Shown here piece after piece: positions 7,662-42,600 of a stretch of DNA of 64,000 bases (within the stretch, counting starts at the first letter, position 1; every line of letters begins with the position of its first letter). Below the pieces are notes generated by a model. The model was not told the DNA's origin. It was given only the letters and a program-made list of their open reading frames with translations, and did not search any database. The stretch lies in assembly GCA_963791085.1 (NCBI GenBank), contig CAWBQG010000003.1, forward strand, positions 119,447-183,446, written 5' to 3'. The translations under genes were made by a program, and so were the position numbers. This stretch comes from an uncultured Acidobacteriaceae bacterium. GTDB lineage: Bacteria > Acidobacteriota > Terriglobia > Terriglobales > Acidobacteriaceae.

Positions 7662-7735
7662 ACCGGGCCTGCGGGGTCGCCTCAAACCATGTGACCGGAA
7701 TCACACTCGCCGGTGATAGAGGGTACGGGCGTACT

Positions 7736-21989: not shown

Positions 21990-23762
21990 CTATGCCACTG
22001 TGGCAACTTCCGCTTCCTCGTATAAGTCATCGATCTGCTTTCGATAACGTTCTTCGACGATCTTGCGGCGAAGTTTCAACGTTGGCGTAAGACTGCCGTC
22101 GTCTGTGCTGAATTCATCCGCCACCACCAGCACCTTTTTCAATGTTTCGTAACGGGCAAGCTTCTGGTTTACTTCCTGAACAATGCCGTCATAGAGAGTC
22201 TGAACTTTCGGGTTGCCAACCAATTCCCGCCGCGACGAGAAAGAGATATGGTTGGCGCGCGCCCAATCCTCAAGCAGACTAAAGCACGGAGAAATAATTA
22301 CCGACGCGAATTTCCTCCGGTCCCCCACCACCACTGCGGTTCCGATCAGAGCGTTCAGCTTGAGGGAATTCTCAACCGGTTGGGGCGCGATAAACTTCCC
22401 GCCCGAGGTCTTGAGCAAGTCTTTCTTACGATCGGTGACCGATAGAAATCCATCCTCATCCAGCATCCCGATATCCCCGGTTTTGAACCAGCCATCCACA
22501 AACGCGCTCCTGGTTTCCTCCGGGCGGTTCCAGTACGCTCGAAAGACCGAGGGACCGCGCACCAGAATTTCATGGTCTTCCGCGATCTGCACTTCGACAT
22601 TCGAGAGAAGCCGGCCCACTGTGCCCAGTTTGTGGGCGCGCGGCGTGTTCACGGCAATTACAGGCGAAGTTTCTGTCAGGCCGTATCCTTCGTGAATGCG
22701 GATCCCAATGCTCGCATACCACGCGGCCAGTTCACTGCCCAGAGGCGCTCCGCCCGAAACAAATACTTCAACGTTGCCGCCCATTCGCGCTCGCACCTGC
22801 GAATAGACCAACTTATTCGCCAGTTTCCAACTTAGAGACGTCGGCACCTCGCCTGCCAGGACCCTGTGTGCATGCGCACGGCCCACCGCGAGCGCCCAAC
22901 GGTAGATCGCTCGTTTGGGGAATTTCTTGGCCTTCTGTTCAACCTGGCCGTAAATTTTTTCGTAAACGCGCGGCACGCCCACGAAAAGCGTAGGCATCAC
23001 CTCCATAAGAGTCTGTGGCAGGTGTTCGAAGAAGGGGCAGTAGGCCAGAGTTACGCCGTGGTAGAGCAGCGCGAAATCGGCATGACGCGCGGTTACGTGC
23101 GACAGCGGCAAAAACGAAACACTGATCTGCCCAGGGTGAACATTGAAGCCCTCAAGCGAGCACAGAATGTTCGAGGTCAAATTTCCGTGCGTGAGCTGCA
23201 CCCCTTTAGAGATGCCCGTTGTTCCCGAGGTGTAAATGATGGATGCCAGGTCGTCTGCGGCGACGGCGCGCGCGCACGCATCCAGATCGGGGTCGAATTC
23301 AGCTGAACCTTCCTCCATTAACCGGCGCATGGGCGCCGCATCGGCAGTGTCCAGTGCATCCATCACCACTACCCGTTCCACCGCCGTCTGGTCCTTGATG
23401 GAAAGGACTTTCTTCAATTGTGCCTCGGTGGAAACGACCACAACCTTCGCCCCGGAATCGCACAAAATGTAGGCTGTCTGCTGAGCGGTCAAGGTGGCAT
23501 AGATGGGAACAACCGCAACGCCCAGTTGAAAAGATGCGAAGTCCGCTACGGCCCACTCCGGCCGATTCTCACTCAGGATCGCGAGCCGGTCTCCTTTCGT
23601 CAGCCCCCACTTGCGGAGCCCTCGCGCCACGCCCGCCACATGCCGATAGAACTGGCGCGAACTGACGGGAGTCCATCGGCCCGACTCACGAGTCAGCATC
23701 ACCCGCTCGTGCCTGCGGTCCACAATCGCCGAAAAGATGTCGTTAAGGGTTCGAGGCGTCAT
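21990..23762 (-). CDS. long-chain fatty acid-CoA ligase (AMP-dependent synthetase)
   Basis: 590 aa with AMP-binding motifs: IIYTSGTTGISKGV, GYGLTETS, TGDIG, GKFIAPQ. Confidence 0.9.
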   Translation of the reverse strand: MTPRTLNDIFSAIVDRRHERVMLTRESGRWTPVSSRQFYRHVAGVARGLRKWGLTKGDRLAILSENRPEWAVADFASFQLGVAVVPIYATLTAQQTAYILCDSGAKVVVVSTEAQLKKVLSIKDQTAVERVVVMDALDTADAAPMRRLMEEGSAEFDPDLDACARAVAADDLASIIYTSGTTGISKGVQLTHGNLTSNILCSLEGFNVHPGQISVSFLPLSHVTARHADFALLYHGVTLAYCPFFEHLPQTLMEVMPTLFVGVPRVYEKIYGQVEQKAKKFPKRAIYRWALAVGRAHAHRVLAGEVPTSLSWKLANKLVYSQVRARMGGNVEVFVSGGAPLGSELAAWYASIGIRIHEGYGLTETSPVIAVNTPRAHKLGTVGRLLSNVEVQIAEDHEILVRGPSVFRAYWNRPEETRSAFVDGWFKTGDIGMLDEDGFLSVTDRKKDLLKTSGGKFIAPQPVENSLKLNALIGTAVVVGDRRKFASVIISPCFSLLEDWARANHISFSSRRELVGNPKVQTLYDGIVQEVNQKLARYETLKKVLVVADEFSTDDGSLTPTLKLRRKIVEERYRKQIDDLYEEAEVATVA

Positions 23763-26499: not shown

Positions 26500-29166
26500 T
26501 TACACGGTTTGTTGTTCGGGTATGTCAGCAGGTTTGGCAACGCCTCGGCCCTCATACGCTTTCCAAAGCAGTTCGGCCAGTTCGCTCATTAGGGGCATGC
26601 GCGGATTCGAGCGCCACGACGGATCTTCAAAAGTGGCCTTCACGAGGTCGGGAATCGCCCGCTCGAATTCTTCCTTCGAAATGCCCATCTCGGCGATTGA
26701 TCGTGGAAAGTTCAAGTCATCGAGCAATTGTTCCGTTGCCTCGATCAGTTTCTTGACTTTTTCTTCCACCGTATGACCGCCTAGTCCGAGTAAGTCTGCG
26801 ACCGTAGCGTACTTTTTATGCGCCACATAACCCTGCGTATAAGGCGACGGCATGAACTTGGCAGGAACTGCGGCGTTATAGGCAATTACATGCGGCAACA
26901 TGAGCGCATTGGCCCGGCCGTGCGCGACGTTAAAACGCGCCCCAAAAGCATGCGCTAGCGCGTGATTGACTCCCACTGACGCGTTTGAGAATGCCATTGC
27001 CGCGATGCAGGCGGCGTTGTGCATCATCGAGCGGGCCTCTTCATCGCGTGGATGCTCATAGGCGATCGGCAGGTACTTAAATGCCAGCCGAATCGCCTGC
27101 ATGGCGTTGGCATCGGTATAAGGCGATGCATAATTCGACACGCCAGCTTCCAGCGCGTGAGTCAGGCAATCGATGCCGGTGTCGGCCGTCAGGCCTTTCG
27201 GCATCGACATGACAAACTGCGGATCAACAATCGCCACGTCCGGAGTTAGCGAGTAATCGGCAAGTGTCACCTTGCGCCCACTCGACTTATCGGTCAGTAC
27301 CGCAAATGGAGTAACTTCGCTGCCGGTTCCGCTGGTTGTAGCAATCGCAATCATCCGTGCCCGGCTTGCTTTTTCGGTCGGAAACTGAACCACTCGTTTG
27401 CGGAGATCGAGAAAAGGCGCCGCCAACCCTTGCAGGTCAGCCTCGGGCGATTCATACTTAAGCTTCATGATCTTCGCCGCGTCGATAACCGACCCGCCGC
27501 CGAGCGCAATGATCTGGTCCGCTTTGTAGAAGTTGAGTGTCTCCACTCCCTGCGAGATGACCTTGATCTCAGGCTCCGCATCCGGAATGACTAGCACGTG
27601 AACGTGAGTGTCCGCGCCAATGTTTCGCCGGACGATATCTACGTGGCCGATTTGCTCGAGGCCCGGACTGGTGACGATGATGGTCGAGCGGGAGGGAAAC
27701 TGCCGCACGTTTTCCACCGCGTTCATGTTGAAGTAGATCTGATTCGGAATTCGGAACCACATATGGTTTTGTGTCCTGCGGGCGACGCGCTTGATGTTCA
27801 GATAGTGATAAACGTTGACGTTGTCGGTTGTGCTGTTACCGCCTCCGGTCCCGCATCCGAAAGAGAACGTCGGCACGAGATCGTTGTAAACCGCGCCCAG
27901 CGCTCCAATTGAGCCCGGCGAATTCACAATGATTCGCCCTGCGTTGATCACTTCGCTGAACTTGCGGATCACCTCATCGTTGCGCGAGAAAACAACCGCG
28001 GTGTGCCCAAGCCCTCCGGCATGATTTACGTCCACGCACACCTGGAGTGCCTCGCTCACCGACTTCGCGCGATAGACCGCGAGCACCGGGAATAGCTTTT
28101 CGGCCGAAAGCGGATGCTCCCGACCCACGCCTCGAATCGGCGCAATCAGAAGTTTGGTATTTGGCTTCACCGCGAGACCAATGAAGCGCGCGATATCGGT
28201 AGCCTTCTGCCCAACGGCCATAGGCTGCATAAATCCGGTCTGCGGATCAATCACCGTGCGCTCCAGCAGCGCGGTTTCTTTCTCGTTGCAGATGTGCGCG
28301 CCCAGGTCGGCAAATGTTTTCAGGGCGGCATCATAAATCTCGTCGTCGATCACCACCGTCTGCTCGGAAGCGCAAATGGTCCCGTTATCGAATGTTTTCG
28401 AAATAATAATGTCGACCACGGCCGCATTCAGATCCGCGGATTTTTCCAGGTAAACTGGCGTGTTCCCCGGTCCCACACCCAACGCCGGCTTGCCCGAACT
28501 GTAAGCGGCTTTTACCGCGCCCGGCCCGCCCGTGGCGTCGATCATGGCCACGTCTTTGTGCCGCATCATGTAGACGTTGTCGGGGATCGTGGGCGATTCC
28601 AGGCAGCTAAAAACCCCCTCCGGCGCGCCTTGCTTCACTGCCGTCTCGTACATGATTCTCACGGCCTCGGCGCAACAGCGCCACGCTTTCGGGTGCGGGC
28701 TGAAGATAACCGCGTTCCGCGTCTTCATCGCCACGATGCACTTGAACAAGACCGTGGAAGTGGGGTTCGTAATCGGCGTAATTGAAAACAAGACGCCGAT
28801 CGGGTCCGCTATCTCCACTAAATTCCGCTCGGGAAACTCGCGAATCACACCGACTGTGCGCTTGTCCTTGACATAGTTATAGACAAACTCGCTGGCCACC
28901 ATGTTCTTGATGACCTTGTCTTCCATCACGCCAAGCCTGGTTTCCTCAACCGCCAGCCGCGCCAGATGCTGAGCCTGCTCAAGTCCCGCCAGCACCATCG
29001 ATTTGACGATGCGATCCACGTCCTCCTGTGTAAATTGGGTAAAAACAGCGGCGGCGGTTTTTGCCTGACTAACCAGGTTCTCCAGGTAAGCAGTTCGTTC
29101 CGGACTGAGGCTGTCCGCGGCGGATGGACCGTGCGCTTGCTCCTTCACCGCTTCACTCGCGATCAT
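26500..29166 (-). CDS. adhE: bifunctional acetaldehyde-CoA/alcohol dehydrogenase AdhE
   Basis: 888 aa. N-terminal aldehyde dehydrogenase half (TNPTSTVLFK, FDNGTICASEQ) and C-terminal Fe-ADH half (GGGSVIDAAK, GVNHALAHAFG). Confidence 0.95.
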   Translation of the reverse strand: MIASEAVKEQAHGPSAADSLSPERTAYLENLVSQAKTAAAVFTQFTQEDVDRIVKSMVLAGLEQAQHLARLAVEETRLGVMEDKVIKNMVASEFVYNYVKDKRTVGVIREFPERNLVEIADPIGVLFSITPITNPTSTVLFKCIVAMKTRNAVIFSPHPKAWRCCAEAVRIMYETAVKQGAPEGVFSCLESPTIPDNVYMMRHKDVAMIDATGGPGAVKAAYSSGKPALGVGPGNTPVYLEKSADLNAAVVDIIISKTFDNGTICASEQTVVIDDEIYDAALKTFADLGAHICNEKETALLERTVIDPQTGFMQPMAVGQKATDIARFIGLAVKPNTKLLIAPIRGVGREHPLSAEKLFPVLAVYRAKSVSEALQVCVDVNHAGGLGHTAVVFSRNDEVIRKFSEVINAGRIIVNSPGSIGALGAVYNDLVPTFSFGCGTGGGNSTTDNVNVYHYLNIKRVARRTQNHMWFRIPNQIYFNMNAVENVRQFPSRSTIIVTSPGLEQIGHVDIVRRNIGADTHVHVLVIPDAEPEIKVISQGVETLNFYKADQIIALGGGSVIDAAKIMKLKYESPEADLQGLAAPFLDLRKRVVQFPTEKASRARMIAIATTSGTGSEVTPFAVLTDKSSGRKVTLADYSLTPDVAIVDPQFVMSMPKGLTADTGIDCLTHALEAGVSNYASPYTDANAMQAIRLAFKYLPIAYEHPRDEEARSMMHNAACIAAMAFSNASVGVNHALAHAFGARFNVAHGRANALMLPHVIAYNAAVPAKFMPSPYTQGYVAHKKYATVADLLGLGGHTVEEKVKKLIEATEQLLDDLNFPRSIAEMGISKEEFERAIPDLVKATFEDPSWRSNPRMPLMSELAELLWKAYEGRGVAKPADIPEQQTV

Positions 29167-29542: not shown

Positions 29543-29557
29543 TGCTGCGGTGCAGCA
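29543..29557. promoter_or_regulatory. PhaR-type palindromic operator TGCTGC-ggt-GCAGCA (adhE leader/promoter region)
   Basis: Perfect 6+3+6 palindrome, identical in its arms to the sites at both phasin-like promoters. It lies 377 nt upstream of the adhE ATG. Confidence 0.5.
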
Positions 29558-29642
29558 TAAGTCATGCACGCACGGCGTTAGTTGCAGACTCAACACGCGC
29601 ATGGTGATCACCACGCGACTTAGCGGACATGCCAGGTTATTA

Positions 29643-29655
29643 GCTGCAATGCAGC
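29643..29655. promoter_or_regulatory. second, shorter palindrome GCTGC-aat-GCAGC upstream of adhE
   Basis: Same 5+3+5 core as the 15-mers, 100 nt further upstream. Confidence 0.35.
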
Positions 29656-29872
29656 GCAAGAATTGTTTTGCGGCGGGCCCATGGAAAGGAATCCGATTTG
29701 GCGTCCAGCTGATTGCGAAACAGGGGTTTCGCCTCATCCGTCGTGGAAGTCATGGAAATTTGTTGCAGAAACCAAGGGGTATTGCGGAAGGGCAGTCTGG
29801 GGCATTCTTTTCCCCTCATCACCGGCGTTCTCGACGAGGTTGCCGAGCAACGGTCGCCCCGCATGGGCAGCT

Positions 29873-30160
29873 TCAGAACATTACGCAGGCTTCGTTGACC
29901 CGATCCAGCACCCGTTGCAGCAGCGCGAGTTTCCGCTCGAGTTCCGCCTTCCGTGCAGCATCCGTCTCCCGGGCGATTTGCTCCTTCATGCTGTTCTTCT
30001 TGCCCGCAAGCAACTCTCCCGTCTGTTCGAGTTCGCCGGCGTCGAGCCGCAGATCATGGGCCATGACCTTTGTCAAAATTTCGTTGTATTGTCGCGGGTC
30101 GCCTTCTAGCAGAACATTCGCCAGCAGTTTCAGTTCGTCCGTTTCCAGGTGGAATTGCAT
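29873..30160 (-). CDS. hypothetical coiled-coil protein
   Basis: The ATG at 30160 is preceded by GAGGGGGAG. The 95-aa product starts MQFHLETDELKLLANVLLEG. Family not recognised. Confidence 0.5.
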   Translation of the reverse strand: MQFHLETDELKLLANVLLEGDPRQYNEILTKVMAHDLRLDAGELEQTGELLAGKKNSMKEQIARETDAARKAELERKLALLQRVLDRVNEACVMF

Positions 30161-30352
30161 GGCTCCCCCTCTCAACTCGAAAAATGCTTCATAGAAATTA
30201 GATCACGGTAACCCGCGAGGTGTCAGTGACGACCATCATCGGAGCACAGTCCGGCCGTACTTCTTCCAGGAATTCTCGATGAGGTGGAATTGGGTTGATG
30301 ACGCCGCAGGCGCGGGCGCGGGAAAGAACGAATTGCAGCGGTTCCTCCCGGT

Positions 30353-30913
30353 CTACTGCCCAAGCAGGCCTTTTTTCAGAGCCGCAGTGGGCGGCTTTGG
30401 CCCAAGCCACACGGAGAAGAGCGCTTGGCCGAAGCTCGGGCCGTCGATCACCAGCCTCTCCTTGCCATTGATGGCGAACGTCGTGCCCATGCCGGGGACG
30501 CAGGTGAAGATCATCTGATCGCCCTCCTTGAGCGGTTCAAGGGCGCCCAGCATCCGGTCGATGTCCGCCTTCATCGTCCTCTCAGCGTCCGGCGCGTTGT
30601 CGCGAAACGATTCGTCGAACGCCTCCGCCATCTGGTTCTTGCTTACGCTGCGCATGAACTGCAGGACGATCCGCTTGGGTTCATCGGCCTTGAGGATTGC
30701 GCCGGGATCCGCGGACTTCTGCGTCAGGTAGAGTCCTGCAACGTAAACCTTAACCATGTATTTCGTGCGCAATCCCATGCCATTGAGCACCAGCGACGTT
30801 CTCCCCACCTGTACCGTATCCGGCATGGACACGCCCGCCAGTTCGGCAGCGTATAGATTGCAGATCGACGCCAGCGCGAACGCGACCGCCAACGAAATAA
30901 CCGTGCTTCGCAT
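30353..30913 (-). CDS. secreted chalcone isomerase-like family protein
   Basis: 186 aa with a signal peptide and a pattern typical of bacterial CHI-like proteins (LVLNGMGLRTKYMVKVYVAGLYL ... FSVWLG). Confidence 0.8.
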   Translation of the reverse strand: MRSTVISLAVAFALASICNLYAAELAGVSMPDTVQVGRTSLVLNGMGLRTKYMVKVYVAGLYLTQKSADPGAILKADEPKRIVLQFMRSVSKNQMAEAFDESFRDNAPDAERTMKADIDRMLGALEPLKEGDQMIFTCVPGMGTTFAINGKERLVIDGPSFGQALFSVWLGPKPPTAALKKGLLGQ

Positions 30914-31081
30914 GTGTATCCCTCAGTAAACGGGCCTGCGAGACGAGATCGTACCACAGGCAAACCTGCCGTCCGAGCCACCTCTTAGTCCGAGGCTGGC
31001 TCCATGAATACCTGAACGAACTCGACTCTTGTTGATAAAATGAGCGGCGAGCGGCGAGTCGGAAACCCAAAAGGGAGGCGG

Positions 31082-32344
31082 ATGGAGAACGCGATCGGTC
31101 TCGTGATGACCGGCGGAGGCGCCAGGGGTGCCTATCAAGCCGGAGTTCTGAAGCGCATCGGTGAGCTGAAAGCGATCGAGGCCCACGGCAATCCTTTTCC
31201 TTTGATCGGAGGCGCGTCCGCCGGCGCAGTGAATGGCAGTGCGCTCGCCGCCGGTTGCGACGATTTCTCCTCCGCAACCCGTCTTCTCGCCGAAATGTGG
31301 GCGGGGCTCCAACCCTCCGATGTCTTCCGCTGCGATTTCGTAACGCAGGCGCACAATTCCCTCACCTGGATTCTGGATCTTTCATTTGGCGGGATTACCG
31401 GCGGAGGCCATGCCCGATCCTTATTAGATGCCGCTCCACTGCGGCACTTCCTGGGGCGGCATCTCGATTGTGACCGCATTCAAGCCAACATCAAGTGCGG
31501 CAACCTCTATGCTCTGGCCATTTCGGCGACCAACTTCAACTCCGGAAAGAGCTATCTTTTCATTCAGGGCGCCAAAGGGCACCCCATGTGGCAGCGTAGC
31601 CGGAGGGTGACGGTAGCGGCCAAAATTACGGTTGACCACATTTGCGCGTCCGCCGCCATTCCACTGATCTTCGAGCCGGTGCAACTCAAGATCCCAAGGG
31701 GATCAGCTTTCTTCGGTGACGGTTGCGCTCGCCTTCAACAACCTCTCAGCCCGGTCATCCGCCTGGGAGCGAAGAAGGTTTTCGCCATCGGCGTCCGCTG
31801 TGACAGCCAGCAACCCCTGGAAGTAAGCGCAGTTGAGAAAAGTCCCTCGCTCGCGCAGGTGATGGGAGTTCTCTTCAACGTGATCTTCCTCGACCATCTC
31901 GCCACCGATCTGGAGCACTTGGAGCGGCTGAATCATCTGCTCGAACATGGCCAGATCGTGAAGCACGACGTGGAAGAGTGCGAAACAATCCGCCCCTTGC
32001 GGACGTTTGTCATCACCCCATCCGTCATCTTGTCGGATGTGGCAGAGCGCCATCAAAAAGACATGCCCTCTCTGGTTCGGTACTTTGTCAACAGCTTGGG
32101 ACGGGATTCGGATTCCTGTGCGGACTTGATGAGTTACTTGCTCTTCACTTCAAAGTACACCCGCGAGTTGATTGACGTCGGCTATCGCGACGCCGACGAG
32201 CGAATCGATGAAATCGAAGACTTCCTATATTCCTCGGACGGTGGGGAAAGCCGGAAGATCGCCGCCAATGCGGCGAAAGGTGGGATCAAGCCACCTGCGG
32301 ACCTGAACGCCGATGGACCGGGTAACGTAAACCGGTTCTTGTGA
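31082..32344 (+). CDS. patatin-like phospholipase family protein
   Basis: The ATG at 31082 follows GGAGGCGG. Motifs: oxyanion GGGARGAYQAGV, nucleophile GASAGA, and FFGDGC (catalytic Asp region). Confidence 0.85.
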   Translation: MENAIGLVMTGGGARGAYQAGVLKRIGELKAIEAHGNPFPLIGGASAGAVNGSALAAGCDDFSSATRLLAEMWAGLQPSDVFRCDFVTQAHNSLTWILDLSFGGITGGGHARSLLDAAPLRHFLGRHLDCDRIQANIKCGNLYALAISATNFNSGKSYLFIQGAKGHPMWQRSRRVTVAAKITVDHICASAAIPLIFEPVQLKIPRGSAFFGDGCARLQQPLSPVIRLGAKKVFAIGVRCDSQQPLEVSAVEKSPSLAQVMGVLFNVIFLDHLATDLEHLERLNHLLEHGQIVKHDVEECETIRPLRTFVITPSVILSDVAERHQKDMPSLVRYFVNSLGRDSDSCADLMSYLLFTSKYTRELIDVGYRDADERIDEIEDFLYSSDGGESRKIAANAAKGGIKPPADLNADGPGNVNRFL

Positions 32345-32586: not shown

Positions 32587-33513
32587 TCAGGCGGTCGCCG
32601 CGACCGGAGGCTTTCTGGTGGCCCGCACTGGACGCTTGGCGCTCCGCTCCGTCTTGCCCGTTCGCGCGTGTCCATTCACAGGCCTTACGACGGCATCCAT
32701 CACTGCCCGCTGCGCGTCCACGTAGCTCTTCACAGTCTCCCGCGCCAACTCGCCCAGTGGGACGAACGGGAACGGCTGCAGAAGGTCCAGGGTCTTGCCT
32801 GCAGTTTTCACATAGGCGTTCATTTGCTGCCCTGCAACGTCGGCCAGCTTCTTTTGGGCCTCGATGAACGAGTCTGTCGCCTGTCGCGCAATCTCCGCCA
32901 GTTCGGTCTTCTTCATCTTCTTCGCACCGTTGGCGCTCTTCCCGCGGGTTGCGTTGGAGGTCTCTTCGGCGATCACGTCCAGAAAACGCTTCTGCGCCTT
33001 GACGAAGGTCTCCATGCTTTCGCGGGCCAGATCCACCACGTGCTCCGGCTGGTATGGCTTGCGGGCTTTGGCGGCCTCCACCCAGACATGATTCTGCTTG
33101 CCGGCGATCTTCAGGAACCCCTCTTGCATCTCAATGAAGGTGTCCACGCTGCGCCGCAGCAGATCAATGGCGGCATGGCGCCGCGGGCACTCGCCGATAC
33201 GTTCCTTGACCCCGGTCATCAGAATTTCGTTCTGCTCCTTGCCGAGATCGAGAAGCACCTTCTGTCCTTCGAGAAAGTTTTCCATGCCCTCGCCCGCCAT
33301 TTCGTTGAGGATGGTCGTGGGCGAACGATGGGGATCCGATAGTTGCTGCCGCAGGACGTCCATCACGCTGGCATTCTGCCGCATCGCCAGATCCAGCAGG
33401 ATCCGCTGCGTGCCGAAGAAAGCCTGTGCTCCCTGCTGCGCCCAACCGGAAAGAAGCGACAACACCGACGCTTCCTTTTGCGGAGTGGGTTCGTGCTTTG
33501 TTGCCGCTGCCAT
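32587..33513 (-). CDS. phasin-like repeat protein (paralog 1)
   Basis: 308 aa with six copies of an amphipathic motif, x-F-x3-Q-x3-L-D (e.g. ENFLEGQKVLLDLGKEQ, ETFVKAQKRFLDVIAEE, DSFIEAQKKLADVAGQQ), and a basic C-terminal tail. It is divergent from phaR and preceded by a strong promoter plus a palindromic operator. Confidence 0.7.
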   Translation of the reverse strand: MAAATKHEPTPQKEASVLSLLSGWAQQGAQAFFGTQRILLDLAMRQNASVMDVLRQQLSDPHRSPTTILNEMAGEGMENFLEGQKVLLDLGKEQNEILMTGVKERIGECPRRHAAIDLLRRSVDTFIEMQEGFLKIAGKQNHVWVEAAKARKPYQPEHVVDLARESMETFVKAQKRFLDVIAEETSNATRGKSANGAKKMKKTELAEIARQATDSFIEAQKKLADVAGQQMNAYVKTAGKTLDLLQPFPFVPLGELARETVKSYVDAQRAVMDAVVRPVNGHARTGKTERSAKRPVRATRKPPVAATA

Positions 33514-33528: not shown

Positions 33529-33543
33529 TGCTGCGTTGCAGCA
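33529..33543. promoter_or_regulatory. PhaR-type palindromic operator TGCTGC-gtt-GCAGCA at the phasin-like gene 1 / phaR divergent region
   Basis: Perfect palindrome, 8 nt downstream of the -10 of the phasin-like promoter and just upstream of its RBS. Confidence 0.65.
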
Positions 33544-33623: not shown

Positions 33624-34157
33624 ATGAAGCCTTCCGCAGTCGTCATCAAGAAATACGGGAATCGCCGCTTGTACGACACCACTGGCAGCCGCTACGTCAA
33701 CCTCGACGACCTGGCCGCGCTCGTTCGAGCAGGTCAGGAGGTCCGCGTCGTCGATGCGAAAACCGGCCAGGACCTGACCCGCGTCACGCTGACGCAAATC
33801 ATTACCGAGGACGCTAAGGATAAGCCGACCGGCCTGCCGCTCGAACTGTTGCGTCAGTTGATCATCGCCTCCGATGAAGTGCGGCAGGAATTCCTCATGT
33901 GGTATCTGAAATCCGCGTTTGACACCTACGAGAAGGTGCATGATACGGTGCAGCACCGCTTGAGTGAAGTTCAGTCCGCCATCCTCTCTCCGGTAGACAT
34001 GATGAAGCGCTTCCTCGGTACAGCGGTGCCATCGTCTCCGCAAGCCGGCGTGGAGCCCGAAGTGGATGCCCTGCGCAAGCGGGTCGCGGAACTCGAGGCG
34101 CGACTGGAAAAGCCCGCGCGCGGCAAAGGCAAACGTAAATCCCGCAAGAAGCGTTGA
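33624..34157 (+). CDS. phaR: polyhydroxyalkanoate synthesis repressor PhaR
   Basis: 177 aa with a PhaR N-terminal DNA-binding signature (IKKYGNRRLYDT..S.YV.L.DL) and a basic tail (GKGKRKSRKKR). Confidence 0.9.
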   Translation: MKPSAVVIKKYGNRRLYDTTGSRYVNLDDLAALVRAGQEVRVVDAKTGQDLTRVTLTQIITEDAKDKPTGLPLELLRQLIIASDEVRQEFLMWYLKSAFDTYEKVHDTVQHRLSEVQSAILSPVDMMKRFLGTAVPSSPQAGVEPEVDALRKRVAELEARLEKPARGKGKRKSRKKR

Positions 34158-34315: not shown

Positions 34316-35128
34316 TTGCAGCGCAAACAGAAAAGGACAACAAAACGTCATTCAACGATCGGACAGCGCAGGCGTCCTCGTCGGCAACTCCGCCCGGAAG
34401 CGAACACCTCCCTCTGGACCGAGGCGCTGCTCGGAGCTGAAATCCTCATCCTTCACGCCGCTCCTGTGTTCTACGGCCTGGGCGTGCCGCACGGCGATGG
34501 CTCCGCGGTTGTCATCATTCCCGGGTTTCTCGGCACCGATCTCTACCTGACGGAGCTGCATGCATGGCTGCGCCGCATTGGATACCAGCCGTATTTTTCC
34601 GGGATCGGCATGAATGCAGAATGTCCGAACCTGCTCATCCAGCGCCGTCTGAATCAGACCATCGACAGGGCGTTGGCCGAGACGGGGCGCAAGATTCATC
34701 TGATTGGCCATAGCCTGGGAGGAGTCATCGCCCGCTCGGTGGCGGGCGAGCGGCCGAACGATGTTGCTTCAGTAATTACCCTGGCTGCGCCCATCCGCGG
34801 CATGGTTGCGAATCGCGCTGTTCGCCGCGCCGCCGAAGCTGTTCGCCTCCGCATTCTTGAGGAGCACGGCCGAGGCGTGCTGCCCGATTGTTACACCGGC
34901 CAATGTACCTGCAATTTCCTGAATTCGCTCCGTCGCAAAGTCCCCGCCGCGATGGGCGAGACCGCCATTTTCACACGCAACGACGGCGTTGTGGACTGGC
35001 GCAACTGTCTGACGAGAGACCCTGAAAAAGACGTGGAAGTCCCCGGCACTCACATCGGAATGGCATTCAATCCAGCGGTATATGCGGTGGTCGCCGAGCG
35101 GCTGGCCCGGGCGCATTCGGCCGGGTAG
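34316..35128 (+). CDS. alpha/beta hydrolase (lipase/esterase-like)
   Basis: Nucleophile elbow GHSLGG, with an upstream PGFLGTD loop. The first available start is TTG 34316, giving a very basic N-terminus. The real start is uncertain. Confidence 0.75.
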   Translation: MQRKQKRTTKRHSTIGQRRRPRRQLRPEANTSLWTEALLGAEILILHAAPVFYGLGVPHGDGSAVVIIPGFLGTDLYLTELHAWLRRIGYQPYFSGIGMNAECPNLLIQRRLNQTIDRALAETGRKIHLIGHSLGGVIARSVAGERPNDVASVITLAAPIRGMVANRAVRRAAEAVRLRILEEHGRGVLPDCYTGQCTCNFLNSLRRKVPAAMGETAIFTRNDGVVDWRNCLTRDPEKDVEVPGTHIGMAFNPAVYAVVAERLARAHSAG

Positions 35129-35147: not shown

Positions 35148-36089
35148 TCAGCCAACCATCTCCAGCACCGCGCCGGCGGTGGTTTCTAAACTTTCTGCCG
35201 GTGCGCCCGCAATCTCAATAACAAGCGACGCCGATGCCAGGCTGTTGTTCAGGACCTCGAACGCGCTCGTGCAATCAGTCTTTAAATAAGGAAGGCGATG
35301 CAGGCTCGGACCGCGTCCGTCAATCGAAGCTTCCAGGCGGAGCCCATTTCGTCCGCCGCAGCGAAAATTCCACTGCATGCCGGTGCGGATGTCGCCGTGT
35401 TCCCGCAAATCGCGGAGGACATGCTTCTCGCCACCGTGCCAGAGCACCGCTTTGCGGAATACCAGTCCAAATGGCATCTCGTAGACCAGGGCCTCAAACG
35501 TGGTTGCGGGCCGGCCGGCGCGAGGAAAATATGCGTGGGTCCAGGTCCAGAAGTTGCGATGCCGGTATCCGCAGTTGTGTCCCTGCAAGCCGAACCCGAG
35601 CGCGTCGCCCGCAAAGCTCCAGCCGTCCAGCGTGATCTCGCCGGAAAAAATCGCATCGGAGTGCGGCGTCCGCGAAAAGCCAATCCAGCCTTTGTTGCTC
35701 AACGTCACACGAAACGTGGAACGGTAACGCAGGTTCCAGCCGATCGTATGCCCGTCGACCACCAGCGCTCCCCGGCACGAGTCTTCTTCGATGCCGTTTT
35801 CGCCAACGTGAAACTGAAAGGGAGCCTGTCCTCTTCGGCTGAGGTCTAGCGACTGCAGCGGAAATCCCTGAATGAAGCTCTGCGGCTGCCCGCCCGCCGG
35901 AAACCATGTCGCCCACACCTGCACGGGCATTCCGCGCGGATTTCCGGCGCAGCCGCCGCGCCCGGGATTCATCAGCAAGTAACGAAACCACCAGGCGCCG
36001 CTGCCGTCGGCCAGTCCCATACGAAGAAACCAGACTTCATAGCGGCGCCGAACCGACAATGACGAAAATACTTCGTTTAGAGTGGCCAA
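35148..36089 (-). CDS. hypothetical protein, tentatively tocopherol-cyclase-like family
   Basis: 313 aa (TTG start). From memory, it resembles tocopherol cyclases: an N-terminal YEVWFLR...WWFRYLLMNP (cf. FFEGWY.R...F.YS.ENP), a central GHNCGYRHRNFWTWTHAYF (cf. EKNWG..FP..W.W.Q.N.F), and a C-terminal TAGAVLEMVG. The family call needs an HMM search. Confidence 0.5.
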   Translation of the reverse strand: MATLNEVFSSLSVRRRYEVWFLRMGLADGSGAWWFRYLLMNPGRGGCAGNPRGMPVQVWATWFPAGGQPQSFIQGFPLQSLDLSRRGQAPFQFHVGENGIEEDSCRGALVVDGHTIGWNLRYRSTFRVTLSNKGWIGFSRTPHSDAIFSGEITLDGWSFAGDALGFGLQGHNCGYRHRNFWTWTHAYFPRAGRPATTFEALVYEMPFGLVFRKAVLWHGGEKHVLRDLREHGDIRTGMQWNFRCGGRNGLRLEASIDGRGPSLHRLPYLKTDCTSAFEVLNNSLASASLVIEIAGAPAESLETTAGAVLEMVG

Positions 36090-36221
36090 GGATTTTCACG
36101 CTCCACGTAATGCAAGAAACGACATAGGAACTGTCTCACGGACGGATCGCACACGCCGTGATAGCTGTTACTGCGCTTCCGGGCCCCGGAGACTATAGTG
36201 TGAAGATCGAGACTCACCTCT

Positions 36222-37889
36222 ATGCTGGATGCGTCCGCCATCGCCGCGGGCTTTGGCCAGCTCGCCCCCGGCCAGTTGCGCGCCGCCCTCGAGAGCTTCT
36301 TGCCCCAGGGCGTCCCGGCCGCCGATAAAGTCAGCGTCATCGAAACCGGCCTGCGCAGCCCTGCCGGCCAGGCCATGCGCGACGTAATGGCGCGATGGAT
36401 CGTCGATGAAATCGTTCCGGTGGATACGCTCGTTCCCGAAGCTTATGTCAAGTGGCGTCCGCCTGTAAGGGACGCCATGATGTTTGTGGTGGCGCGACTT
36501 TCCCCGGCGCGCCTCGCCCCAAAACTTCTGGAGCAGATTGATCTTCCCGCCAACACGCTGGCCGAAGTGCGGCTGCTGCGCTTGATCGCGAAGGTGCCGG
36601 GCCTGCAAAAGCTGGGCCAGGTTATCGCGCGCAATCAGCATCTTCATCCGGCTCTGCGCAAGGCGCTTGCCCGGCTCGAAAACGGGATTCGCGACGTCCG
36701 GCCGGAACAGATTCATGCCATCATTCAGCGCGATCTGGGGAAGAGGATCGAAACGTACGCCATCGAGATCGCCCCTGCCATCCTCTCGGAGGCCAGCGTC
36801 AGCGCGGTTGTGCGCTTCAGCTGGCGAAATCCCGAGACCGGACGCCGCCAGCGTGGCGTCTTCAAAGTCCTGAAGCCTCACATCCCCGAGTATTTCGCCG
36901 AAGACATGGACTATCTGCAAGGGCTGGCCCAATATTTCGGAGATCGGCACCACCGCTATGGATTTCCTGCGCACCTCATTCCTGATACCTTCCGCAAAGT
37001 CCGGCGCTTGCTCCGGCACGAAGTCAATCTTGTCCGCGAACAGAAGACGCTGGTCGAAGCGGAAACTCTCTATCGGTCGATGCCCGGTGTTCGTGTGCCG
37101 CAGGTGATCGCCCCTTTGTGCGCGCCCACCATCACAGCGCTCACTGAGGAACGCGGGATCAAGGTAACGAGCGCGGCCGCCCGCTTGCCTGTCGCGCGCC
37201 GCCGAAAAGTGGCCGAGCAGCTCATCGAAGCTCTCGTCGCCGTGCCTTTGTTTGCGGCCACGCCCGATGCGATCTTCCACGGCGATCCTCATGCCGGCAA
37301 CCTGCTCTACAACAACCGCACCGGCGATTTGGTCATCCTCGACTGGGCCCTGCGGGAGCGACTGGGCCGCGAGCAGCGCCGGCATCTGGCGCTCCTGTTT
37401 CTGATGGTCAGCTTGCGCGATCCTCTCGGCGCCAGCGCCGCGATCGGCGCGCTCAGTCAGCAGCCCACAAGAATGCATTCGACTCGGGGAAAAATGCTGC
37501 GCCAGTCGGTAACGGAATTTCTGGGCGAGATGCCGCCCTCCCATTTGCCCAGTGCCGCCGACTCCATGCGCCTTCTCGAACGGGTCGCGATGAAAGGCGT
37601 CAGGTTTCCCGCCTCGCTCGTCATGCTGTCAAAGGTGATGTTCACGCTCGAAGGCATACTGGCCGACATCGTTGGGTCGGACACGGGTATGGGCTTCGCC
37701 ATCGCGCGTCGCGTCGCCCGCCGCTGGCTTGCCAATCGCTCCGCGTTCCGCTCGCCGCTCCGAACACGGGACTGGCTGACGCTGCAGTGCAGCGCGTTGC
37801 TCTACACCAGCCGCCTGTGGATCGATTGGGAGCAAGCGATGCTGAGGCGTTTTCTGACACACCGTTCCAAAGCGTTGCCAGCTGCCTGA
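36222..37889 (+). CDS. ABC1/UbiB (AarF) atypical kinase family protein
   Basis: 555 aa with ABC1 motifs: VFKVLKP, FHGDPHAGNLLY, ILDWA. Confidence 0.9.
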   Translation: MLDASAIAAGFGQLAPGQLRAALESFLPQGVPAADKVSVIETGLRSPAGQAMRDVMARWIVDEIVPVDTLVPEAYVKWRPPVRDAMMFVVARLSPARLAPKLLEQIDLPANTLAEVRLLRLIAKVPGLQKLGQVIARNQHLHPALRKALARLENGIRDVRPEQIHAIIQRDLGKRIETYAIEIAPAILSEASVSAVVRFSWRNPETGRRQRGVFKVLKPHIPEYFAEDMDYLQGLAQYFGDRHHRYGFPAHLIPDTFRKVRRLLRHEVNLVREQKTLVEAETLYRSMPGVRVPQVIAPLCAPTITALTEERGIKVTSAAARLPVARRRKVAEQLIEALVAVPLFAATPDAIFHGDPHAGNLLYNNRTGDLVILDWALRERLGREQRRHLALLFLMVSLRDPLGASAAIGALSQQPTRMHSTRGKMLRQSVTEFLGEMPPSHLPSAADSMRLLERVAMKGVRFPASLVMLSKVMFTLEGILADIVGSDTGMGFAIARRVARRWLANRSAFRSPLRTRDWLTLQCSALLYTSRLWIDWEQAMLRRFLTHRSKALPAA

Positions 37890-38039: not shown

Positions 38040-38792
38040 TTACGCCGGCACAACCTTGGGCCGGCGAACTGCGCGCCGCTGGCTGTGTTTGGCCTTGGCC
38101 ACGACCTTCCTGCCCGGCTTGACAAGCTCCCCGATCCGGGACGCCTCCTTCTCGACAAAGTTCTTCACGCTTTCGCTGGTGAGGTTCGCCATCGGCAGCA
38201 AGCGGGAAGGCGACATCATTTCGGCCGTTCGAGTGGCCACGTCCAGGTTGACGTTCATCTGCTGGCCCACGACGTCGAGCAGCCTTTTCTGCGCCTCGAC
38301 AAAGGCGTTTCCTGCTTCGCGAGCCAGTTGCGTCAGTTCGGTTTTTTTCGCAGTCTTGCCGTCGTGCTCGTGCTTGCCCCGCGTCGCTTTCGCGGTTTCC
38401 TGCGCCACCACGTCGAGGAACTTTTTTTGCGCGCGCGTAAAGGTCTCGACCCCCTCGCGGGCAAACTCCACCAACTGGGCCGAGCGCGATCCCTTGGCTC
38501 CCTTTTCCGGCTCCAGCATCCGGAGCGCCTGTTTGCTGGTGGTGGTCAGCAGCTCTTGCTGCATCCCGATGAGTGTATCGAGGCCCCGCCGTACAAGATC
38601 GGTCGCTGCAACCGCCGGCAGAAAGCCGCCGACTCGTTCTTTTACACCGTTGAAGATGATGTCGTTCTCTTGTTGTGCCAGGTTAAGAAGAGTGCGCTGC
38701 GTTTCCACAAGGCTCGATGTTCCCTCGACGGCCAGCTCAGTCAACAACGACAGAGGCGAGTGCCCATTGTGGAGATTGGTATGGGTCGGCAT
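38040..38792 (-). CDS. phasin-like repeat protein (paralog 2)
   Basis: ATG at 38792 (MPTHTNLH). It is collinear with 32587..33513 (ETFTRAQKKFLDVVAQETAKATRGK...KKTEL...AFVEAQKRLLDVVGQQMN) and has a basic tail. It has the same promoter/operator architecture. Confidence 0.7.
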   Translation of the reverse strand: MPTHTNLHNGHSPLSLLTELAVEGTSSLVETQRTLLNLAQQENDIIFNGVKERVGGFLPAVAATDLVRRGLDTLIGMQQELLTTTSKQALRMLEPEKGAKGSRSAQLVEFAREGVETFTRAQKKFLDVVAQETAKATRGKHEHDGKTAKKTELTQLAREAGNAFVEAQKRLLDVVGQQMNVNLDVATRTAEMMSPSRLLPMANLTSESVKNFVEKEASRIGELVKPGRKVVAKAKHSQRRAVRRPKVVPA

Positions 38793-38806
38793 AAGTGCCC
38801 TCCAAA

Positions 38807-38821
38807 TGCTGCAATGCAGCA
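38807..38821. promoter_or_regulatory. PhaR-type palindromic operator TGCTGC-aat-GCAGCA at phasin-like gene 2
   Basis: Perfect palindrome, again exactly 8 nt downstream of the -10 and just upstream of the RBS. Confidence 0.65.
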
Positions 38822-38829
38822 TTGACACT

Positions 38830-38858
38830 AATATAGTATTCGCGCCGCTGCCCGTCAA
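38830..38858 (-). promoter_or_regulatory. sigma70-like promoter of phasin-like gene 2 (TTGACG-N17-TATATT)
   Basis: On the minus strand: 'ttgacg' (38853-38858), a 17-nt spacer, 'tatatt' (38830-38835). Confidence 0.55.
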
Positions 38859-39037
38859 GAGTTGTCTTCAGCCCATTGCGTTGCATCAATATGCAGCCTC
38901 GTGTGTCCTGAAACGGGAGGTGATTCGTCACATTTCCTTCGTGACCCAGCGCATATTCCTGCCGGTTCCGCCGCGCTACTCTGATTCCACTCCCAGCGAC
39001 CACTGACGGTCCGCTCCCCTCCAGAAAGAGATTTGCC

Positions 39038-39643
39038 ATGCGTGTCTTGCGGCGAGTGTTCTTGGCCGCTCTATTCCTGATCGTGTTCTGCCCCTGGAGC
39101 CTCGCGGCCTCCGGTGAATCCGATCAGGCCGTCGCGGAACGCGTCTTGGGTCCGCAATGGAAGCACCTTTCGTGCCGGGCGGGGATGGTATTTGCCGGCA
39201 CGGTGCTCGCCGACCGGGTACAAACCGCGCGAACCGACCGCAACGTGCCATCCATCGCGATGCGGTTCCGCGTGGACCGCGCGATTGCCGGCGTCGAGCC
39301 CGGACAGGTTCTGACCATCCAGGAATGGACCGGCGCGTGGTCGATTCAACCGCCCATGCGCCGAGGCGAGCGCTTCCTCCTCTTTCTATATCCGCTCAGC
39401 CGCCTCGGTCTGACCAGCCTGGTCGGGGGATCGCAGGGGCAGATTCCGCTGGATCCAACTGGCAGATACATCCTCGGCCACCGCCTGTGGGCTTCAGCCC
39501 GCATGCAAAATGCAGCGCAGCCGACTGCGTCGTTGGCTCGCGGGTCGGCCAGTGCTGCCTGCGCAACTCACACTCCGGCGGACCGCGCTCCCGTCACGCT
39601 GGACCAACTGGAGCGGGCGATCCGCTCGGCGCGAGGCGAGTGA
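39038..39643 (+). CDS. secreted hypothetical protein
   Basis: 201 aa with a signal peptide (MRVLRRVFLAALFLIVFCPWSLAASG). Its stop is 3 nt before the next gene. Confidence 0.6.
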   Translation: MRVLRRVFLAALFLIVFCPWSLAASGESDQAVAERVLGPQWKHLSCRAGMVFAGTVLADRVQTARTDRNVPSIAMRFRVDRAIAGVEPGQVLTIQEWTGAWSIQPPMRRGERFLLFLYPLSRLGLTSLVGGSQGQIPLDPTGRYILGHRLWASARMQNAAQPTASLARGSASAACATHTPADRAPVTLDQLERAIRSARGE

Positions 39644-39646
39644 GCC

Positions 39647-42600
39647 ATGCGAACTCGAATCATGACCGCCGCGCTGCTCGCCATTCTCACTCCCGTCACT
39701 CTCCGTGCCGGGGGCCCGGCTTTCATCGCCGGATCCGGCTACGATCCCGGAGTCGAGGGCCAGCCGCTCGTATGGGCGAACGCGTCGGTGCAGTACTACA
39801 CCGATCAGGGCGACCTCAGTCCCATCCTCACCAATGCGCAGGCGGATGCGTTCGTCGCCGCCGCGATCACTCCGTGGACCACCGCCGTCGGCGTCGGCCT
39901 CACCGTTAGCCAAGCGGGTCATCTGGCCGAGGACGTCACCGGCAGCAACATCCAGGTCACCGATGGCGCGATCAGGGCGCCCGCCGACATCACTCCTTCC
40001 GCGACCACGACGCCGCTCGGCATCGTCTACGACTATGACGGCACCGTCACCGATGCCATCCTCGGCGAAGGCGCAGGCGACCTCGAGGATTGCTTCACCA
40101 ACGCCGTCTATGGCGGCCCCGACAACTTCGCCGCCAGCGGCAACATCGTCCATGCTCTCGCCGTAATCAATGGAGTCTGTGCTTCCGCCAGTGCGCAACT
40201 CCCGGATGTGCAATACCGCCTGGTGCGCGTGCTCGCGCGCATCTTTGGACTTGGCTGGTCGCAGGCGAACATCAACGTCCTCACCAACGACCCGCCGCCA
40301 ACCGAGGACGACTACGCGGGCTTTCCCGCAATGCACTTTGCCGACCCGATCAGCTGCGTGCCCATCAGCCGTTGCTATCCCAATGCCGCCGTTCCCAAGC
40401 TCGATGACGTTACGGCGCTTGCGGCGTTGTACCCCGCCTCCAGCGGCAATCCGCAGCCAACCGGCGGACTCTGGGGCAATGTCTACTTCACCGACGCTTC
40501 CGGGAATGCCGCGCAAATGATGCAGGACGTCAACGTTGTAGCTCGCCTGATCGTCAACGGTCAGCCCTCGCGTCAATCCGTTGTGACTTCGGTCTCCGGA
40601 TATGCTTTTGTCGGCAACGCCGGCAACATCATCACCGGATACCTGAACCCAAACGGACAGCCGTTTAACAGCTTCGGCTCGAGCGATCCTGCACTCGAAG
40701 GCTTTTTCAGCCTGGGCCAGCTGATGATCCCCAGCGGCCAGACCTCGGCCTTATATCAACTCAGCGTCGAGGCGCTCGATCCGGACTGGTCGATGGGTGT
40801 GGGGCCCTACGCGCCCACCCAGGTCGCGCCCTCAGGTTCGTTTGCTCCGGTAGTCGTCACCGTAGTCAGCGGAACGAATCCCGAGCGCGACATCCTGATG
40901 GCGGGGAGCGAAATTGCCCAATCCCATCCCGGAAGCGGCTCGAGCTACCAGAATCCCGCGCCTTTGCCGCAAGGCGGCAGTTGGGGCTCGTGGATCTCGG
41001 GTTATGGCGCGGCCGATTTCTTCCAGTTCAATGCGCAAGCCAACCGTACCGCGTCGGTCACGGTGACGGCGTACGACGAATCCGGCAATCCTACCGAATC
41101 CAAGCTGCTGCCGGTCATTGGAATCTGGGAACTGAGCGACCTGAACGGCAACCCTGCGCCCGCCGCCACGCCTTCACCATTCAATTCGACGACGTTTGCC
41201 GTGACTCGCCTCAATGCCCAGTTCAGCACCTCCGAACCGTTCCGCGTCGGCGTGGCCGATTACCGCGGCGACGGACGTCCCGACTATTTTTACCAGGCCA
41301 GCGTCCTCTATTCGGATACGCTTACCCCCGCACGCCTCAGCGTGGCCGGAGGCGTAACCACGCTCGAAGGAATCGGCTTTCAATCCGGACTACAGGTAAG
41401 CGCGGGCGAAAATAACGGCACTGTGCTGACCCAATCCGCAACCCGGATGCAGGTGGCGCTGCCGCCGGCCGTGCAGGATGGCGCGGCCACGATTCAGGTC
41501 GCGAATCCGGTGAGCGGTTCGTTCTCGCAAATGATTGGCGCGCTCACGTATGGCGCGGCCGCGACCGATCTGCTTCTGCTTCTGCAAGGCGTCGAGCCGG
41601 CAACTCCCGCAGGAGCGCAGGCGCCGAATTTGATCCGCGTGCGCGCGACCGCCTCCGATCGAGTCACGCCCGTGAATGGAGCAACCATTGCGTGGAGTTC
41701 AACCAACGGCGTTGAATTCTCAGCTTGCGGCGCCGCAACTTTCTGTTCCGTCCTCACCGACCAAGCCGGAGAAGCTTCCACCTGGGGCCACGGGGCCCGG
41801 CACAATCACGGCACAGCTCGCGCCCGCTTCCTATTCGTCCGCCCAGACGCAGCAAACTACGCTGGTCGGATCCGAGAGCGCTCTCGATCTCGCCGCCATC
41901 GCCGCCACGCACTGGATCGCGAAGGGCGCAACCCTCGCGGTTCCGCTCACGGTCGAAGCGCTCGACCTCGGGGTGCCGCAAGCGAACGTGGCCATCCAAT
42001 TCACGGTCGTCAACGGCACGGCTTCTCTTTCTTCGACGACTGCAACCACCAGCAGCGCGGGACTGGCCAGCGTGACCGCGCAAGTCGCAAACCTCAGTGC
42101 CACCGTGCAGGTGAGCGCTTGCGTTTCTCCCGCCAATGCTCCCTGCCAGACCTTCACGTTGTTCGCCGTCCCGGCTTCTTCGTGGACGCTGGAACCGGTG
42201 AGCGGAACCCTTCAGGTCGTCCCCAATGGCCAGCCCTTTCAGCCGTTGGCGATGCGCGTGACCGACGGCTCGTCGGCCGACAATCCCGTGATGGGAGTCA
42301 ATGTCACCTTTGTGACCACGCTCGAACGCAACCCGCAGCCGCCCGGCGGAGGTCCACCTGCGGGCGGCGATGTCCAGGGACAGGATGACGCGCCCATTAT
42401 CCTCGGAACGTCGCAAACGCAAATCGTTACCGGACAGGATGGACTCGCGTCCATCACGCCGAGCGTCGGCAACCTCGGCCCGTGCGACGCGTTCATCGCT
42501 GTGACTGCGGGAAGCGCGACCGCTCAGTTTGAACTCGAGAGCGTCGACCCGCTGCCCTCGGAAACGCAGCCGCCCCAGAAAAAGGCCGGATGGGAACCGC

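Follow-up and report, generated by a model that had tools for sequence, protein, structure and literature searches.

Phosphorylation of the tocopherol cyclase VTE1 has been reported for the kinases ABC1K1/3, and a handover of hydrophobic substrates has been proposed for COQ8/UbiB. Plastoglobules carry both ABC1Ks and VTE1, and so do cyanoglobules, the lipid droplets of cyanobacteria (PMC12223511). In 2016, heterotrophic bacteria were noted to have tocopherol-cyclase-like proteins, whose function was unknown (PMC4963081), and within the searchable literature we found no link of such proteins, or of ABC1/UbiB proteins, to bacterial gene clusters for WS/DGAT, a wax ester synthase and diacylglycerol acyltransferase. 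Here we describe two divergently transcribed genes in a 64,000-nucleotide stretch of DNA from an uncultured Acidobacteriaceae bacterium (the whole stretch is called the window), which encode a tocopherol-cyclase-like protein of 313 amino acids (aa), hereafter TC-like, and an ABC1 kinase of 555 aa. The pair lies in a lipid-storage locus of about 17 kb. An earlier reading of the window, made from the sequence only, had proposed it as a conserved lipid-droplet module parallel to the plastoglobule core proteins.

TC-like shares full-length profile homology with VTE1/slr1737 (PF14249, EC 5.5.1.24). It keeps (F)E-x-W-(Y/F)-x-R at the N-terminus, WxW in the signature region and V-x-E-x-x-G at the C-terminus, and by its gene linkage it would belong, as VTE1 does, with ABC1-family kinases and neutral-lipid bodies. 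Unlike VTE1, it has no direct PF14249 match, reads LQGHNCG in place of YxEKNWG and HAY in place of the QxN of WxWxQxNxF, and is about 80 residues shorter than the reconstructed mature part of VTE1 (393 aa). Its host is non-photosynthetic, and no tocopherol or prenylquinone synthesis genes (homogentisate prenyltransferase, HPPD, MPBQ/quinone methyltransferase) are present among the genes scanned in the first 50 kb of the window. Nearest among the named relatives, at 27-32% identity and with an hhalign E-value of 2e-38, are the "tocopherol cyclase family proteins" encoded by heterotrophs such as Myxococcales and Nocardioides, which share with TC-like a Q-[GA]-H...G and WxWxH signature. These match PF14249 and adjoin GMC oxidoreductases, an aldehyde dehydrogenase or acyl-CoA ligases, their surroundings being free of ABC1 genes, whereas the window family has no Pfam match and is set in a PhaR/phasin/WS-DGAT cluster. 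A whole-length two-barrel fold is predicted to be common to TC-like, kievitone hydratase/AttH/CrtC-type proteins, CghA, Fsa2, Phm7 and 25-phosphosteroid lyase (TM-score 0.49-0.63); each of these has 10-14% identity to TC-like and no relationship to it at the level of hidden Markov models (HMMs).

As on plastoglobules and cyanoglobules, ABC1-family and tocopherol-cyclase-family proteins are tied here to a lipid-droplet system. Unlike the ABC1K-VTE1 partnership, the tie consists of gene proximity, seen within a single bacterial order and at roughly half of the loci; unlike plastoglobules, the droplets would have a core of wax ester or triacylglycerol (TAG) made by WS/DGAT, not of prenyl lipids. 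Within a known superfamily, the TC-like family is a variant that Pfam does not see, and its genomic setting is new.

Family placement and predicted fold of TC-like

The following features are concerned.

35148..36089, minus strand: TC-like protein, 313 aa, TTG start; tocopherol-cyclase superfamily by profile comparison, predicted two-beta-barrel fold
35526..35582, minus strand: signature segment GHNCGYRHRNFWTWTHAYF, aa 170-188 of TC-like, homologous to VTE1 (E)KNWG...FPRKWFWVQCNVF
36090..36221, no strand assigned: divergent promoter region, 132 bp, with blocks conserved over 52 genomes
36222..37889, plus strand: ABC1/UbiB-family atypical kinase, 555 aa, PF03109 match

Both open reading frames (ORFs) lie where the sequence-only reading had placed them, on opposite strands and in divergent orientation, separated by a spacer of 132 bp. 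All peptide strings that it quoted were recovered from the two translations: YEVWFLR (aa 17-23), WWFRYLLMNP (33-42), GHNCGYRHRNFWTWTHAYF (170-188) and TAGAVLEMVG (304-313) in TC-like, and FHGDPHAGNLLY (aa 352-363) in the kinase. More than 2,500 homologs of the 313-aa protein were found; the best 120 are 74-82% identical to it, unnamed, free of Pfam annotation and from Terriglobia-type Acidobacteriota. On sequence grounds the ORF is a genuine gene, and its TTG start is supported because the N-termini of the homologs are conserved from residue 3 on. In these searches, the subfamily, which carries no Pfam annotation, turned up in Terriglobia alone. The protein starts with a short, moderately amphipathic helix; inspection of the N-terminus revealed no signal peptide and hydropathy no transmembrane segment, and the protein is predicted to be cytoplasmic.

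Scans of the 313-aa protein against Pfam and NCBIfam at E<=1 returned zero matches, so that neither Tocopherol_cycl nor the CrtC, AttH-type and DUF2804 families, named for comparison in the sequence-only reading, could be assigned by this route; the closer relatives P0121 and P0122 likewise match no Pfam family at E<=1. The family was placed through intermediates. An exhaustive phmmer search of 1.84 billion (1.84e9) representative proteins yielded a compact main family followed by more distant full-length matches (27-32% identity, E 1e-12 to 1e-9), several of which pass the gathering score of PF14249 Tocopherol_cycl and are named "tocopherol cyclase family protein" at NCBI. Comparing the window family (A1) with this PF14249-positive group (A2), hhalign gave 100% probability and E=2e-38 over 288 columns. 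BLAST alignments shown in S2 Fig of PMC4963081 served to reconstruct residues 73-465 of Arabidopsis VTE1 (393 aa), with which the combined profile aligned over the full length (97.3% probability, E=2.4e-11, 293 columns). Searching the PDB sequences with profiles A1 and A2 produced chance matches such as plastocyanin and DsbE and no relative, and a metagenome scan for deep relatives resembling P0122 returned the main family alone. Judged by these profile alignments, the 313-aa protein is a true remote member of the tocopherol-cyclase superfamily.

The tocopherol-cyclase-like call, which the sequence-only reading had itself declared its weak link, is thus correct at superfamily level, since the three landmarks named there correspond to VTE1-homologous segments in the profile alignment, namely FEGWYFR, YxEKNWG..WxWxQxNxF and AVEIGG. 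Specifically, RYEVWFLR of the 313-aa protein aligns with FFEGWYFR of VTE1, LQGHNCG...FWTWTHAYF with YSEKNWG...KWFWVQCNVF, and GAVLEMVG with AAVEIGGG. In tocopherol cyclases, conservation is strongest where YxEKNWG is followed by FPxxWxWxQxNxF, a region that is probably catalytic (PMC4963081); the catalytic residues of VTE1 are not defined in the mutagenesis paper PMC12754398. In the second motif, W181 and W183 are kept while Gln is replaced by His185 and Asn by Tyr187. The Q-[GA]-H version of the first motif is common to the window family and the remote bacterial group. E18, W34, W59, W118, W183, Y268 and E310 are conserved from the window family to the remote bacterial relatives, with H171, H177 and N281 nearly so, and E18 and E310 align with Glu in VTE1. 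With a core motif that reads LQGHNCG, the protein represents a divergent superfamily branch rather than an orthodox tocopherol cyclase.

A first AlphaFold model built from close homologs only was poor (pLDDT 59); it was not relied on and was replaced by a second, based on a diverse alignment including the remote relatives, which is confident (pLDDT 85.2, pTM 0.86). In a Foldseek comparison of this model with the PDB, kievitone hydratase (7a0q; TM 0.60, rmsd 5.2) had the best E-value and the lowest root mean square deviation (rmsd). The fungal decalin-forming pericyclases CghA, Fsa2 and Phm7 scored TM 0.57-0.63, AttH (2ich) 0.52 and 25-phosphosteroid lyase 0.49, all of them full-length matches with probability 1.00. 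The structure prediction envisaged by the sequence-only reading thus leads to the AttH/kievitone-hydratase class, and the 313-aa protein is predicted to have a two-beta-barrel fold of the AttH/CrtC/kievitone-hydratase type. The fold alone does not fix the chemistry, since the fungal pericyclases score equally well.

For the 555-aa protein, the ABC1 kinase assignment is confirmed by PF03109 (E=3.8e-25, profile positions 2-236 of 244). It has in common with UbiB/COQ8 the ABC1 domain, the KxGQ motif (KLGQ, aa 130-133), the catalytic Lys (FKVLKP, 214-219), HGDxHxGN (HGDPHAGN, within 352-363) and a metal-binding Asp equivalent to that of DFG (ILDWA, 372-376, where DWA stands in the place of DFG). 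Unlike UbiB/COQ8, it scores far below the equivalog cut-offs of that family, with 106.1 vs 487.55 bits for TIGR01982 and 64.3 vs 667 for PRK04750, which rules it out as a UbiB equivalog. A phmmer search with the kinase against the PDB found no match. A role in ubiquinone synthesis is unlikely, because the quinone of Acidobacteriaceae is menaquinone, not ubiquinone.

Conservation of the gene neighborhood in Terriglobia

Synteny was counted in two samples, the second among those loci with enough flanking sequence.

Sample 1, 80 species-level genomes with TC-like at least 70% identical: ABC1 divergent and adjacent 52/80, alpha/beta hydrolase 75/80, PhaR 73/80, phasin-like 1 74/80
Sample 2, 80 metagenome loci with 58-83% identity: ABC1 divergent and adjacent 7/53, alpha/beta hydrolase 51/66, PhaR 50/58, phasin-like 1 36/43

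Over all 160 Terriglobia family loci, the most constant neighbor of TC-like is the alpha/beta hydrolase (133 loci), followed by PhaR (125) and a phasin-like gene (118), with ABC1 present in 66. A robust genomic tie joins TC-like to WS/DGAT and to the cluster of PhaR, phasin-like and lipase genes, and TC-like is also linked to an AdhE-like gene.

An ABC1 gene lies within 7 kb of TC-like in 66 of the 133 assessable loci, in at least four arrangements. Besides the divergent one, the operon-like order AdhE>WS/DGAT>TC-like>ABC1 occurs on one strand in L115, and WS/DGAT>TC-like>ABC1, operon-like too, with gaps of 49 and 22 bp in L152 and L158. L072 and L149 have the operon-like array TC-like>OMP>ACS>ABC1, with genes for an outer-membrane protein (OMP) and an acyl-CoA synthetase (ACS) in between, while TC-like and ABC1 are convergent in L160. 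The ABC1 homologs of these rearranged loci are 51-61% identical to that of the window. On a neighbor-joining tree, a Fitch count needs about three changes between the states with ABC1 divergent and adjacent and with ABC1 absent, so that independent events of ABC1 linkage are few. The synteny counts rule out ABC1 as a constant partner, just as the rearranged linkages in deeper-branching members rule out that it is irrelevant; the tie between TC-like and ABC1 is recurrent, survives rearrangement and is dispensable. The conserved pair put forward earlier therefore stands as far as recurrent linkage goes. It does not stand as a general unit, with ABC1 absent from a clade of 67 loci and from the surroundings of all six remote PF14249-positive relatives (0/6), and with the hydrolase, PhaR and phasin-like genes linked more tightly.

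Two metagenome-assembled genomes (MAGs) labelled Dormiibacterota and Binatia (L021, DASQGJ010000025.1, and L045, DATKAP010000149.1) carry a complete Terriglobia-type cluster at 72-77% protein identity. By this similarity, mis-binned or mislabelled contigs are suggested rather than transfer.

Gene context and putative operators in the window

The setting among phasin-like genes, lipases and WS/DGAT that the sequence-only reading had described was borne out by scans of the neighboring genes, which are as follows.

21990..23762, minus strand: acyl-CoA synthetase (AMP-binding), the gene found between TC-like and ABC1 in L072 and L149
24581..26167, minus strand: WS/DGAT, which in deeper-branching relatives immediately precedes TC-like and ABC1, all in the same orientation
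26500..29166, minus strand: AdhE-like aldehyde/alcohol dehydrogenase, full-length, 888 aa, directly upstream of WS/DGAT
29873..30175, minus strand: plausible gene for a coiled-coil-like protein of 100 aa, flanked by the AdhE-like and chalcone-isomerase-like genes
30353-30913, minus strand: chalcone-isomerase-like protein, PF16036 E=9e-51, apparent N-terminal signal peptide
31040..32344, plus strand: patatin-like lipase
32587..33513, minus strand: phasin-like protein 1, weak PhaE/phasin similarity, divergent from the PhaR-like gene
33624..34157, plus strand: PhaR-like regulator with a PHB_acc_N domain
34316..35128, plus strand: lipase-like alpha/beta hydrolase with GHSLGG, 19-bp gap to the convergent TC-like gene
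38040..38858, minus strand: phasin-like protein 2, paralogous to phasin-like 1 (about 45% identity)

The locus also contains a gene for an outer-membrane barrel protein. A TGC-rich palindrome, TGCTGCAnTGCAGCA, that resembles a PhaR-type operator has 15 matches with at most three mismatches, compared to 4.1 expected, and no shuffle reached 15. The four best copies in promoter regions precede phasin-like 1 (33529-33543) and phasin-like 2 (38807-38821, a perfect match) and lie upstream of the AdhE-like/WS-DGAT operon (29543-29557 and 29642-29656); the copy in the spacer between phasin-like 1 and PhaR is kept in 73 genomes. This placement before the phasin-like genes and the AdhE-like/WS-DGAT operon suggests that the PhaR-like regulator may control a neutral-lipid regulon rather than one for polyhydroxyalkanoate (PHA). 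Co-regulation of TC-like and ABC1 by PhaR was rejected, TGCTGCAnTGCAGCA being absent from their spacer.

That spacer contains three blocks conserved over the 52 genomes, CACACTAT, which is -10-like for ABC1, TGTGAGATAGT, which is -10-like for TC-like, and GCAGTGAC-N4-CATCACCG at 36158-36171. The position of the third block is also that of one copy of a second motif, GTRAC-N2-4-ATCAC, with four occurrences in place of the 0.65 expected; the others are upstream of the AdhE-like gene (29449-29462), upstream of phasin-like 2 (38920-38931) and at 7691-7704. Other genomes also keep the spacer copy and the one upstream of phasin-like 2, but with different spacing, and the motif may be a common operator of another regulator.

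The ORF of phasin-like 2 has probably been called too long. Its true start is probably the ATG at 38792 (MPTHTNLH...), because the perfect operator and a GGAGG ribosome-binding site fall inside the longer ORF; the promoter architecture before this ATG is the same as that before phasin-like 1. The AdhE-like gene is directly upstream of WS/DGAT on the same strand in several relatives too (e.g. L115, 601-5128). Its product may be the source of the alcohol that is esterified, either fatty alcohol or ethanol, and would then be an unusual partner for WS/DGAT, in place of the classical fatty acyl-CoA reductase. The chalcone-isomerase-like protein may be an exported fatty-acid-binding protein. ORF 29550..30194 on the plus strand was dropped as a gene, its composition being junk-like.

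Two plus-strand ORFs without a Pfam match flank the cluster (201 aa, 39038-39643; 913 aa, 39647-42388) and are conserved, at 62-81% identity, in the closest relatives only (L001-L003 and L099). Farther away, the plus-strand ORFs 9814-10782 and 10826-11602 match two halves of one profile, PF10712 (NAD-GH), strongly, and long minus-strand ORFs (9691-10806 and 10655-11614) overlap both; the pair is either a frameshifted gene or a set of wrong-strand matches.

Possible functions of TC-like and their significance

Two-barrel proteins of this class are cofactor-free and hold hydrophobic prenyl, polyketide or steroid substrates, and acid/base chemistry on C=C bonds (ring closure or hydration) is common to tocopherol cyclase, CrtC and kievitone hydratase. 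The best overall explanation of the locus, to which we give about an even chance, is that TC-like is a two-barrel lipid enzyme of a divergent superfamily branch within a neutral-lipid (wax ester/TAG) storage cluster. It would be a cytoplasmic, cofactor-free, lipid-binding enzyme and, by analogy with its relatives, would hold a long hydrophobic (prenyl or unsaturated) lipid between its barrels. Protonation of a C=C bond, followed by the addition of water or of an internal hydroxyl, would result in hydration or ring closure, with the superfamily-wide Glu18 and Glu310 together with His171, His177 and Tyr268 as candidate acid/base residues. TC-like would probably act at the surface of lipid bodies made by WS/DGAT. 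ABC1 is a probable ATP-dependent helper of TC-like, which could act by phosphorylation, as ABC1K1/3 on VTE1, or by handing over a hydrophobic substrate, as COQ8/UbiB.

Several observations weigh against this explanation. PF14249, CrtC and DUF2804 give no direct HMM match to the 313-aa protein, and against VTE1 the window family alone fails, just the N-terminal motif being aligned (2.5% probability). The VTE1 motif YxEKNWG is L168-Q-G-H-N-C-G174 here, with Glu changed to Gly, Lys to His and Trp to Cys and only the Asn and the last Gly kept; the catalytic mechanism may therefore differ from that of VTE1 or be lost. The large clade of 67 loci has no ABC1 gene in its flanks and no conserved gene upstream of TC-like, and L089, L102, L106 and L107 (65-68% identity, flanks up to 7 kb) are without any of the usual cluster partners. 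The spacer 36090-36221 lacks the PhaR-type operator, and PhaR and phasins could mean PHA granules, not neutral-lipid bodies. Finally, three of the six remote relatives adjoin GMC oxidoreductases and two adjoin acyl-CoA ligases. The GMC-family genes are next to or near the relative in L081 (6443-11057), L083 (8001-11332) and L084 (4395-8939), and a Myxococcales MAG has the order Aldedh > TC-like > GMC oxidoreductase > carboxyltransferase, beside genes for 3beta-HSD, thiolase, a ChsH2-like protein and acyl-CoA ligase. These neighbors are hints that the remote relatives may process sterol-type or isoprenoid lipids.

Alternatively, TC-like could be a hydratase of the CrtC/kievitone-hydratase type that adds water to a C=C bond of an isoprenoid or unsaturated chain, the resulting alcohol then being esterified by WS/DGAT into a storage wax. 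We consider this unlikely, although it has a real chance of being right. The top rank of kievitone hydratase in Foldseek, by E-value and rmsd, agrees with it, as does the operonic association with the AdhE-like enzyme, which produces alcohols, and with WS/DGAT, which esterifies them, and the motif changes relative to VTE1 are compatible with a different nucleophile. However, CrtC and related families are unmatched by HMM at E<=1, the sequence is nearer to tocopherol cyclases than to hydratases, and by fold score the fungal pericyclases are its equals.

A non-catalytic role is quite improbable. Here TC-like would be a lipid-binding or structural protein of the inclusions (PHA granules or lipid bodies), a barrel-type partner of the phasins under the PhaR system. 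PhaR and the phasin-like genes are indeed its tightest partners, the VTE1 catalytic motif is degenerate, and the AttH fold includes members without a known enzymatic role. Yet the many invariant (E18, E310, Y268) or nearly invariant (H171, H177, N281) polar residues form a pattern more typical of an active site, and no PhaR-type operator precedes the TC-like gene.

Rather improbable as well is a genuine chromanol-forming cyclase, which would close the ring of a prenylquinol (e.g. menaquinol-8 or a plastoquinol-like compound) to give an antioxidant chromanol stored in lipid bodies, and which the ABC1 kinase would regulate in the way that ABC1K1/3 regulate VTE1. We know of no chromanol from Acidobacteriota, half of the family loci are without ABC1, the proposed catalytic motif of VTE1 has become LQGHNCG, and no homogentisate, prenyltransferase or quinone methyltransferase genes are found among the scanned genes of the 64-kb window. 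In favor of it, homology to VTE1 spans the full length, ABC1 is linked in several arrangements, alongside WS/DGAT, and both ABC1Ks and VTE1 are contained in the plastoglobule and cyanoglobule proteomes (PMC12223511). Of the sequence-only reading, the plastoglobule parallel is accordingly retained as a gene association (ABC1 linked in 66/133 loci) of a pair that is not the most conserved unit. Its prenylquinone or chromanol chemistry is not supported, with the Glu-Lys of VTE1 replaced by Gly-His and no prenylquinone synthesis gene among the scanned window genes.

Inherited synteny without a functional tie, with TC-like in an unrelated step of lipid, steroid or hopanoid catabolism like its GMC-oxidoreductase-adjoining relatives, would fit linked loci that all come from one order-level lineage, a Fitch count of only three changes, remote relatives with other partners and orphan family members, but it is very improbable, the linkage to ABC1 and WS/DGAT outlasting several rearrangements, including same-strand arrays with gaps of 22-63 bp, and the chance of an ABC1 gene within 7 kb being, by a rough estimate, <1%.

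Returning to the two-barrel lipid enzyme in a neutral-lipid storage cluster, a broader and distinctly unlikely extension is that the droplet partnership of ABC1-family and tocopherol-cyclase-family proteins is an older or independently recruited bacterial module and not a cyanobacterial or plastid invention. In Terriglobia it would be tied to WS/DGAT wax/TAG bodies under a PhaR/phasin-type system, and TC-like would make a new cyclised or hydrated prenyl lipid, such as a chromanol derived from menaquinol or an isoprenoid alcohol that can be esterified, and this product would protect the stored lipid or form part of it.

The tocopherol-cyclase-like proteins of heterotrophs are apparently still uncharacterised, and this locus makes their function addressable: the same-strand arrays with WS/DGAT and ABC1, in a family of more than 2,500 members, offer a simpler genetic handle than chloroplasts. 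The locus also bears on neutral-lipid storage by abundant soil Acidobacteriota and on the role of ABC1/UbiB proteins on lipid droplets and in organisms without ubiquinone. If the link between TC-like and ABC1 is functional, the make-up of the plastoglobule core would have a counterpart outside the photosynthetic lineages.

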